A stretch of 21,329 bases of DNA from a virus (IMGVR_UViG_3300029610_000212); one strand, 5' to 3'. Counted from the first letter of the stretch, positions 11,111-12,807 are shown. Translations and numbers: made by a program. Notes: a model not told the origin generated them from the letters alone.

Positions 11111-12807
11111 TATGCCAGCCTCACAATATAGTTATATGCAACGTTTTTTACGGTGTTCTCTGCATTCCCCGTAGCATTGACCGTGATGGTGTGTCCGTGC
11201 GCCCCCAATGCCACAGTGTGTGCATGGGCACCAATACCTACGGTGTGGTTATGTTGACCAATGTCAACAGTATGAGCATGGTTCCCTGCAGCACTTGATG
11301 TTCCATTAAAGGATGGATTATCAAAACCCGTATAACCGGTTTCACTGTTGGTTCTGGCATTACCCCTGTAAATTGTATGGGTATGATTACCTGTTGTATT
11401 GGTGGTTTTGGTACCATGGTTAAACGTGCTGACTGTCTTCGTGCCGTAATCAAATGAACTTGTCGTTTTCGTTCCTAAATCCGTATTTGACGCACTGGCG
11501 CTGTGAGTATGCGATTTAATACCGTCCTGTTCCTGAGACAATACAGCGCGGCCACTGGCGGGTTTGCCCTTGATTGTCCAGCCCCGCATATCGGGAATCA
11601 CTCCTGACGGATAAGCTCCTGCAAGCAGGGGATAGGCTGCCTTGTCAAAAGTCTGCCCCTGCATAATGGCATAGCCTGTAGGTACTGAATCAGAAGGCCA
11701 CGGAATCGCCGCACCTACCGGAAATGAATCCTGCGGCGTCCATGGTGTCCAGCCACCCGTTGAGTACTGGCTGCGGGTATAGCTTCTGGATGTGTTATAC
11801 ACATAGTAAATTTGTGTTATTCCGGCATTTTTAAGCACAACCAGAGTACCTGAAAGATTCTCAGGGTATTTCAGCACTGCGCTTGTATTGGCATTCAGTG
11901 GCTGATGGTACAGCCCCGGCGTTTTGTAATTATCCAGATTCTGGTTTGCACCAATCTCAATACTCTGACCGTTAAAAATATCCTGCGATGTAACATTGAC
12001 ATCATTGTTCAGTGGTTTGCCATTAACCTTACGTCCTGAGGGTACACGCCCGTTTGCATTGTCATTGGCAGCTTTCACCGCTTTCGGAGTCGCGGCAAGC
12101 GTTTCAGAATCACTGTTAGTGGCGCTGCTTAACTGAACAATCCCTTTTCGTGCCGTGGTGGCGTCCTGTGCAGTGTATTTGCCATCAGCAAGGTCATATG
12201 CTGTCTTAACCGCCTTTGATGTCGCTGCCTGTGTCTCACTGGTGCTGTTCACCGCACTGTTCAGTTGCACCAGACCTTTTTGCTTAGTCGTGGCATCCAG
12301 AACACCAAGAGACTCGCGGGATTCTTTTTGCGCGCCAGCTCCGCGCGCCTTGATTTCCTTCAGGTTCTGGTCAATGTGCAGAAAAAGTCCGTCTCCCGTT
12401 GCCACATTTAACGTGATGTTTGAGGTGTCAGATACAGCGAGCCGGAACTGCATATTGACGCTGACACCGCCAACCGGTTTGTCAATCGCCGGGCAGTTCG
12501 CCACGGCATACAATTCCCCCCCATCAGTCATCAGTCCCACTTCGCGGACTGTAAAACCTCCCGTTCCCGTTGGTAGCACAATTCTGGCCATGAGCTGTGT
12601 CGGCTGTTCCGGTGATACCACCAGCTCTGCAATATCTCCACGGTAGGTTTCATTAACAAGCTGCGTTTGTGCCGGATCGGGTTTCAGCGGTTTGCCATTA
12701 CTGTCGCCAACCACAAACTGTGTCAGAATAATCTGGCTACCACTGGCAAGCGCTTCCGCCTCCAGTTCTTTTCCCCGGTTAGTAATAATTGAATAATATT
12801 CAGCCAT
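11110..12807 (-). CDS. Phage tail fiber protein (P2 gpH-like N-terminus, two tail-fibre collar repeats, HxH-rich C-terminal tip)
   Basis: I take the start at [12 protein letters not shown] (ATG at 12807-12805, preceded by GGGGAG); the track's upstream extension lacks an RBS and overlaps gpI. Two copies of the KGxVQLxSAxNSxSETxAATxKAVK repeat. C-terminal [33 protein letters not shown] carries successive HxH motifs. Confidence 0.85.

Follow-up and report, generated by a model that had tools for sequence, protein, structure and literature searches.

The window analyzed here, a stretch of 21,329 nucleotides from a virus (IMGVR_UViG_3300029610_000212), carries on its minus strand, at 11110..12807, a tail-fiber gene of 565 codons plus stop, whose translation starts with MAEYYS. 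The protein is very probably the receptor-binding fiber of a contractile-tailed prophage, made as a metal-caged hairpin needle of the T4 gp37/lambda Stf type, with specificity residing in the head of the needle and with a Tfa protein as helper. It is a standard, already catalogued prophage tail fiber of that type, and the fiber module itself is ordinary and already known. A deposited 565-residue “tail fiber protein” of Escherichia fergusonii (P0269) is identical to it (BLASTP, 100% identity over 100% coverage), the protein falls in PHROG 295 (“tail fiber protein”, E = 3.8e-195), and three Pfam families follow each other along the chain (PF12571, PF03406, and PF07484).

When all PDB sequences were searched, the receptor-binding tip of T4 gp37 (PDB 2XGF) matched residues 360-565 of the fiber over chain residues 27-242 (E = 1.7e-75), and tblastn gives about 59% identity between the two tips. 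In the pairwise alignment with full-length T4 gp37 (T4 limits from PMC6957217), identical residues amount to 56/71 in the collar (360-431 vs. T4 811-881), 33/50 in the descending stem (432-477 vs. 882-931), 2/28 in the tip (head) sub-domain (478-503 vs. 932-959), 32/50 in the ascending stem (504-548 vs. 960-1009), and 14/17 at the C-terminal end (549-565 vs. 1010-1026). T4 gp37 has H-x-H motifs at 883, 915, 929, 966, 980, 989, and 998. The fiber retains six of these seven positions; at that of T4 915 (915-917) the motif is degenerate and reduced to a lone His464. The proposal of the first-pass annotation that the H-x-H run is the signature of a T4 gp37-type needle is thus upheld by the structural match and by the shared motif positions.

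The run of H-x-H motifs is real and beyond chance. In 100,000 shuffles of the whole protein the mean number of H-x-H was 0.38 and none had six; with shuffling confined to the His-rich last 206 residues, the mean rose to 0.76, and six was attained in a fraction of 3e-5. Thirteen of the 15 histidines of the protein are within the last 140 residues. The peptide quoted in the first-pass annotation corresponds exactly to the minus-strand translation, and, of the five to six regularly spaced motifs it announced, six are present; the regular spacing, however, holds for the last four only, which form a 9-residue repeat G-x-H-x-H-T-V-x-I (GNHAHTVDI/GQHNHTVGI/GAHAHTVAL/GAHGHTITV). These four are also the only ones contained in the interval it had flagged (11113..11300, residues 503-565): the NHTHT with which the quoted run begins does exist in the protein, but outside that interval.

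The flagged run had been taken for the C-terminal tip of the fiber, and here the assignment has to be changed. The chain of gp37-type fibers doubles back, and the seven di-His motifs of T4 coordinate Fe (PMC12609058); in the T4 tip, for which the limits of stem and tip are defined, the needle coordinates seven irons along its length, and the contact with the receptor was mapped by mutagenesis to the head domain (PMC6957217). Because such a chain descends, reverses its course in a small head domain, and returns, the flagged run is not the distal tip: residues 503-565 would constitute the ascending arm (with residues 507-548 as the core of the interval) and end near the collar, as conserved scaffold. 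The fiber's distal pole is predicted to be the head insert 478-506, which, except for its last four residues, lies outside the flagged interval.

Conservation among homologs follows the same partition. A whole-library HMMER search retrieved 1645 relatives with E ≤ 1e-3, of which 247 reached E ≤ 1e-30, and the alignment used for conservation contains 225 unique full C-terminal domains together with T4. Averaged over the positions of each region (n = 225), identity to the window residue stands at 0.80 for the collar, 0.70 for the descending arm, 0.11 for the head, 0.67 for the ascending arm, and 0.84 for the C-terminal end. Histidine occurs with a frequency of at least 0.99 at five of the H-x-H motifs and of 0.82-0.83 at the motif 510/512. 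The first-pass annotation held that its reading would fall if the histidines were not conserved in homologs; with frequencies between 0.82 and 1.00 in the 225 homologs, they are conserved.

The spacings between H-x-H motifs fall, across the homologs, into discrete classes, which could be assigned to 222 of 227 sequences. The first descending spacing of 22, 32, 42, 52, or 62 residues pairs with one, two, three, four, or five ascending 9-residue steps, respectively (in 1, 79, 133, 5, and 1 sequences, with three near-misses). An additional 14-residue step beside the head is present in both arms in 55 sequences, in neither in 167, and never in one arm alone. The sequences P0210, P0247, P0232, and P0263 depart from the rule. 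The window fiber belongs to the commonest class (42/35-residue loop/9,9,9), whereas T4 has 32,14/37/14,9,9; the three 10-residue repeats of the descending arm are matched in number by the repeats of the ascending arm. A derivation from the T4 layout by loss of one motif with a 5-residue deletion is ruled out by these classes (42|9,9,9 vs. 32,14|14,9,9). Since a doubled-back needle requires arms of the same length, the coupling supports the hairpin, and a doubled-back chain with a variable head insert between its arms would account for the pattern, as judged from sequence alone. In the Felixounavirus Bas63, fibers with six and with seven di-His motifs occur, and the number of motifs tracks the length of the needle (PMC12609058). 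Needle length in the family could be quantized, in coupled units of 10 residues in the descending arm and of 9 residues, with one H-x-H, in the ascending arm, so that the ladders would hold some four to eight motifs, or more. The coupling is a sequence-only confirmation of the hairpin needle in more than 200 relatives, which extends the structural papers rather than overturning them, and the rule could serve in the design of fibers of set length. One homolog, P0121 (938 aa), has H-x-H spacings of 32,14,324,32,14,51,14,9,9 with three matched stretches, which suggests either that the protein contains two collar-needle units or that part of the tip is duplicated within the fiber.

Comparison with close relatives, module by module, indicates at least three blocks that are swapped independently. 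In P0270 and P0271 (E. fergusonii), identity is 94%-100% through residue 431, 80%-90% in the stem arms and the C-terminal end, and 17%-20% in the head insert. In P0289 and in the fiber of E. coli SW071611, it is the shaft/knob block 263-359 that is replaced (16%-19% identity, against 96%-100% on its N-terminal side and 90%-93% in the collar), and in SW071611 the head insert is swapped as well (24%). In Chuche, P0278, and P0322, only the N-terminal domain differs (33%-34%), with 97%-100% identity over residues 263-548 and 88% over the last 17. At the DNA level, the boundaries of the mosaic with SW071611 are sharp: 93%-100% identity up to nt 780 of the gene, 23%-66% over nt 781-1140, 80%-96% up to nt 1410, 36%-53% over the head codons (aa 471-510), and 70%-100% from there to the end of the gene. 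Right at the shaft/knob module, DNA identity drops from 96%-100% to 23%-56%. The shaft/knob 263-359, for which no Pfam family was matched, is a second independently exchanged module of the fiber.

That specificity would vary between strains had been expected in the first-pass annotation, and the module identities bear this out; the variation resides, however, in the 29-residue head insert 478-506 (11290..11376) and not in the H-x-H ladder, which stays constant. The homology with gp37, the conservation of the motifs, this map of variability, and the coupling of the arms are direct results of the analysis; the head insert is presumably the receptor-binding segment. It is identical in Chuche, 86% identical in Peduovirus P24A7b, and unrelated to the T4 insert; because of this lack of relatedness (2/28), the receptor is probably unlike that of T4. 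A literature search for host-range or receptor data on phage Chuche returned nothing relevant and no publication on that phage. Our proposal that the head insert is a self-contained specificity cassette for a receptor other than the OmpC/lipopolysaccharide of T4, recombining among P2-like, Chris1-like, and lambdoid prophages, and, separately, that needle length is quantized, is a tentative one, with chances we put at somewhat below even. Host specificity would most likely be encoded at 11290..11376, as distinct from the scaffold parts, which is useful for retargeting fibers and for predicting host range; beyond correct annotation, the finding is of little import.

The Tfa gene follows directly, with its ATG overlapping the stop codon of the fiber gene (TAATG). 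Tfa matches PHROG 105 (E = 1.5e-89), the family in which the deposited T4 record places gp38, and pairwise BLASTP aligns it with T4 gp38 at 27% identity over 177 residues, N-terminal domain included (E = 6e-18); T4 gp38 itself has no Pfam match at E ≤ 0.001. Its identity is 85% with Tfa of Peduovirus P24A7b and 82% with Tfa of Chuche, each encoded after a nearly identical tip. The structure of Mu Tfa (5YVQ_B, E = 6e-11) is matched by its C-terminal residues 126-191, the N-terminal domain being without match. Tfa proteins have a variable fiber-binding N-domain and a conserved helical C-domain (PMC9608196), a scheme with which a match to Mu in the C-domain only agrees. The reading of the adjacent gene as that of a dedicated chaperone is therefore well founded on its family, its gp38 homology, and its overlap with the fiber gene.

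The N-terminal part points to another group of relatives. Residues 1-207 are 85.5% identical to the fiber of Citrobacter phage Chris1, in which the N-terminus has its closest relative. The succession of PF12571 and PF03406 repeats is the same as in the H proteins of Peduovirus P24A7b and Chuche, so that the N-terminus, earlier called P2 gpH-type, is indeed of that family; the identity to these H proteins is, however, only about 28%-34% (28% with P24A7b H over residues 23-358; 31%-34% with P24A7b, Chuche, and P0278 over residues 1-135). Shaft residues 140-212 match the structures of phage Mu fiber S (5YVQ and 8JU3). The idea of an unusual fusion does not hold: temperate enterobacterial phages are the native carriers of the tip and chaperone module, and the C-terminus of T4 g37 with g38 was acquired from a lambda-like temperate phage (PMC3157838), so that a gp37-type tip on the fiber of a temperate phage is the normal situation. 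Upstream of the fiber gene are found gpI-, gpJ-, and gpW-like baseplate genes, a gpD-like hub, gpU, tape measure, chaperone, tube, sheath, and a gpV-like gene. The window does not have the P2 order (V-W-J-I-H-G upstream of sheath and tube); W-J-I-fiber-Tfa follows sheath, tube, tape measure, U, and D, which is the order of Chris1, with J and I homologs present.

In the mechanism we favor, one fiber would be made of three copies of the 565-aa protein, whose N-terminal domain, to judge from its family and from gene order, would dock on a gpJ/gpI-type baseplate. From residue 360, each chain would form a collar, run down (432-477), turn in the head (478-506), and run back up (507-565), so as to yield a six-stranded rod. 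Each H-x-H layer, with contributions from all three chains, is predicted by homology to cage one metal ion octahedrally by six histidines. There may be six ions along the axis vs. seven in T4, where the metal is iron; this number of sites is an extrapolation because the motif at T4 915-917 is degenerate in the fiber. The His ladder would act in folding and stability, as a scaffold and not as a determinant of specificity; the latter would lie in the hypervariable head insert, swapped as a cassette between conserved flanks and contacting the receptor as in T4 (PMC6957217). The co-transcribed Tfa would be the dedicated folding helper, like T4 gp38 and lambda Tfa, and the literature on T4, lambda, and Mu suggests that the three chains fold from the C-terminus with its help.

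Some points weigh against this mechanism. The motif at the T4 915-917 position is degenerate, and residue 464 is His in 17% of homologs and Tyr in 65%. The AlphaFold2 monomer model (residues 357-565, one chain, 48-sequence alignment) is poor, with a mean predicted local distance difference test of 54 and a predicted template-modeling score of 0.20. The trimer, the hairpin course of the chain, the binding of metal, and the contact with the receptor are carried over from the T4 structure and the literature. Finally, the window covers only the tail part of a prophage, from which production of infectious particles can only be presumed.

The alternatives differ widely in weight. That the His-rich run could be a generic metal-binding or low-complexity tail, foreign to any fiber architecture, is suggested by the crowding of 13 of the 15 histidines in the last 140 residues, but it is effectively refuted by the full-length homology to a solved needle structure, by motif positions that are fixed and conserved in 225 homologs, and by the strict coupling of the arms; its probability is close to nil. 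The needle might also be an adaptor of the T2/S16 type, capped by a separate small adhesin encoded downstream that binds the receptor, as in many T-even phages (PMC3157838). The downstream gene is, however, Tfa (PF02413, PHROG 105), a homolog of the gp38 chaperone and not of the glycine-rich gp38 adhesin, and the fiber keeps a complete T4-type C-terminus down to NYIVRLA, which makes such an arrangement very improbable. Tfa could, on the other hand, remain in the virion, attached close to the needle, and contribute to receptor recognition, as reported for Mu and Ur-lambda, whose chaperones are present in mature phages, whereas the virion of T4 lacks gp38 (PMC9608196). The similarity of the Tfa C-terminal domain to that of Mu and a temperate-phage context nearer to lambda and Mu than to T4 are in favor of this possibility; yet Tfa aligns over most of its length with T4 gp38, which serves the same type of tip and is not incorporated, and in the solved T4 tip the head domain itself is the site of receptor contact (PMC6957217). 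We regard a virion-borne Tfa as unlikely, though it is the most serious of these alternatives.

A last alternative bears on the particle rather than on the fiber, which might come from a defective prophage remnant or from a tailocin-like particle that kills competitors instead of infecting. Between 10526 and 21329 only tail genes are seen, without visible head, lysis, or integrase genes, and on the far side of Tfa come an IS3-family fragment and non-phage cargo. Against it, the window ends within the tail cluster, so that the absence of head genes is not a basis for judgment; all tail open reading frames are intact (the apparent split of the sheath gene being masked N); the same order of tail genes is found in the complete 45-kb Chris1 and the same tip in the isolated phage Chuche; and the mechanism of the fiber would be unchanged either way. 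This origin appears improbable, and distinctly more so than a virion-borne Tfa.

The features are collected in Table 1. The ATG at 12807 is taken as the true start, which gives an overlap of 8 nt with the stop of the gpI-like gene. A longer open reading frame of 596 aa (to 12900) was rejected as an upstream extension, a RefSeq-annotated homolog and the deposited P0269 both beginning at MAEYYS.

Table 1. Fiber gene, its domains and H-x-H motifs, and the adjacent genes (positions in the window)
Feature	Residues	Position	Strand	Remarks
N-terminal baseplate-attachment domain	1-135	12403..12807	-	PF12571 “phage tail-collar fibre”, E = 2.6e-34
Shaft, two “phage tail fibre repeat” units	136-262	12022..12402	-	PF03406, E = 4.2e-39, 2 stretches
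Exchangeable shaft/knob module	263-359	11731..12021	-	Sharp drop of identity vs. P0289 and E. coli SW071611
Collar domain	360-431	11515..11730	-	PF07484, E = 8.1e-10
Descending needle arm	432-477	11377..11514	-	HxH at 433 and 475; three 10-residue repeats
Head (tip) insert	478-506	11290..11376	-	Predicted distal pole and receptor-binding determinant
Ascending needle arm	507-548	11164..11289	-	Four 9-residue repeats; HxH at 510, 519, 528, 537
C-terminal end	549-565	11113..11163	-	T4-like, conserved
HTH	433	11503..11511	-	
HTH	475	11377..11385	-	
HAH	510	11272..11280	-	
HNH	519	11245..11253	-	
HAH	528	11218..11226	-	
HGH	537	11191..11199	-	
Tfa (194 aa)		10526..11110	-	PF02413, E = 9.1e-42
gpI-like baseplate gene		12800..13363	-	PF09684 Tail_P2_I, E = 7.3e-40
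gpJ-like baseplate gene		13353..14273	-	PF04865 Baseplate_J, E = 1.4e-26

Downstream of Tfa, no Mu/P2-style invertible segment or invertase was found. A spacer at 9610..10525 (32% GC, no open reading frame of at least 50 aa wholly inside) separates Tfa from a gene for a 430-aa YadA-like trimeric autotransporter adhesin (8317..9609, minus strand, 39% GC), with head repeats, stalk, and anchor and with a tandem array of three 26-aa repeats that are nearly identical (VTKNNAVINQNINNAKSESMAYTDQQ). E. coli A17 has a YadA-like gene, 92.5% identical to it, that likewise stands directly after prophage tail-fiber assembly genes and, because of this same placement, the gene looks like a recurrent cargo of prophage ends. 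It resembles the prophage-borne Eib adhesins. Between it and yagU (6305..6919) lies a truncated IS3-family transposase fragment (7667..8230, plus strand; rve, rve_2, and rve_3 domains only), which probably marks a rearranged junction between prophage and host. The host flank (1..7800) contains the ecpB-ecpE fimbrial operon, a ykgJ-like gene, and yagU, and its identity to E. coli (e.g., E2348/69) is 98%-99%; the proteins that match the fiber exactly are labeled E. fergusonii, unlike this E. coli-like flank. There is no tRNA integration site in the window, and no complete E. coli genome of the collection searched has this prophage at the same site. Two runs of masked N, at 19925..20006 (82 bases) and 1443..1452 (10 bases), split the sheath gene (19302..20078/19801..20850) and ecpC (575..1495/1513..3102) in a pseudogene-like manner. 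A decayed prophage with frameshifted sheath and ecpC genes is ruled out, both splits being masked N; the Chris1 sheath aligns on either side of the gap.

Homologous tips are widespread. They are present in 620 phage records (lambdoid, P2-like, T4-like, Felix O1-like, and others). At the DNA level, the fiber/Tfa region 9600..13400 finds a match in 815 of 5426 complete E. coli genomes. In E. coli SW071611, RefSeq labels the homologous pair tail fiber protein and tail fiber assembly protein.

Among known systems, the T4 gp37 tip (2XGF) with gp38 shares the collar, the doubled-back H-x-H needle, a small variable head, a matching C-terminal end, and a downstream chaperone, gp38, homologous to Tfa. 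It differs in its seven motifs (six in the window fiber), in an unrelated head insert, and in its support: the T4 tip terminates a 1026-aa distal half-fiber, whereas that of the window belongs to a single-protein fiber of 565 aa at a gpJ/gpI baseplate. The tips closest in sequence are those of Escherichia phage Chuche (PP925824), with about 99% identity over the last 300 residues of the fiber, and of Peduovirus P24A7b, with 88% over the C-terminal 206; in both phages, however, the N-terminal domains are of P2 type and the genomes have the P2 order. Chuche has, in addition, a 289-aa hypothetical gene (7806..8675), unrelated to Tfa, between its fiber and Tfa genes. In Salmonella phages SEN4 and SEN5, an annotated macro-domain protein occupies the equivalent position, and the fiber-Tfa junction may be a site of insertion for cargo genes.

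In lambdoid side tail fibers (Stf/Tfa; e.g., HK629, mEp, and PhiR phages), the collar-needle tip is 57%-65% identical and is followed by Tfa, but attachment is to a siphovirus tail, via a much longer and different N-terminal part. The long and short fibers of Felixounavirus Bas63 have the same collar/needle/head tip, with six or seven di-His motifs (PMC12609058); in Felix O1-like phages the similarity is partial (31%-50% over about half of the domain). Citrobacter phage Chris1, with a Mu S-like fiber, has the same gene order (V-like, sheath, tube, chaperone, tape measure, U, X, D, W, J, I, fiber). Its fiber, however, lacks the collar domain and terminates in an invertible segment of Mu type, which has alternative ends and a DNA invertase (10992..15358), whereas the window fiber has a gp37-type tip and no invertase. 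The comparison of these two fibers indicates that one baseplate-attachment domain occurs naturally with either of two unrelated strategies for host range, namely an invertible segment and a fixed tip of gp37 type.

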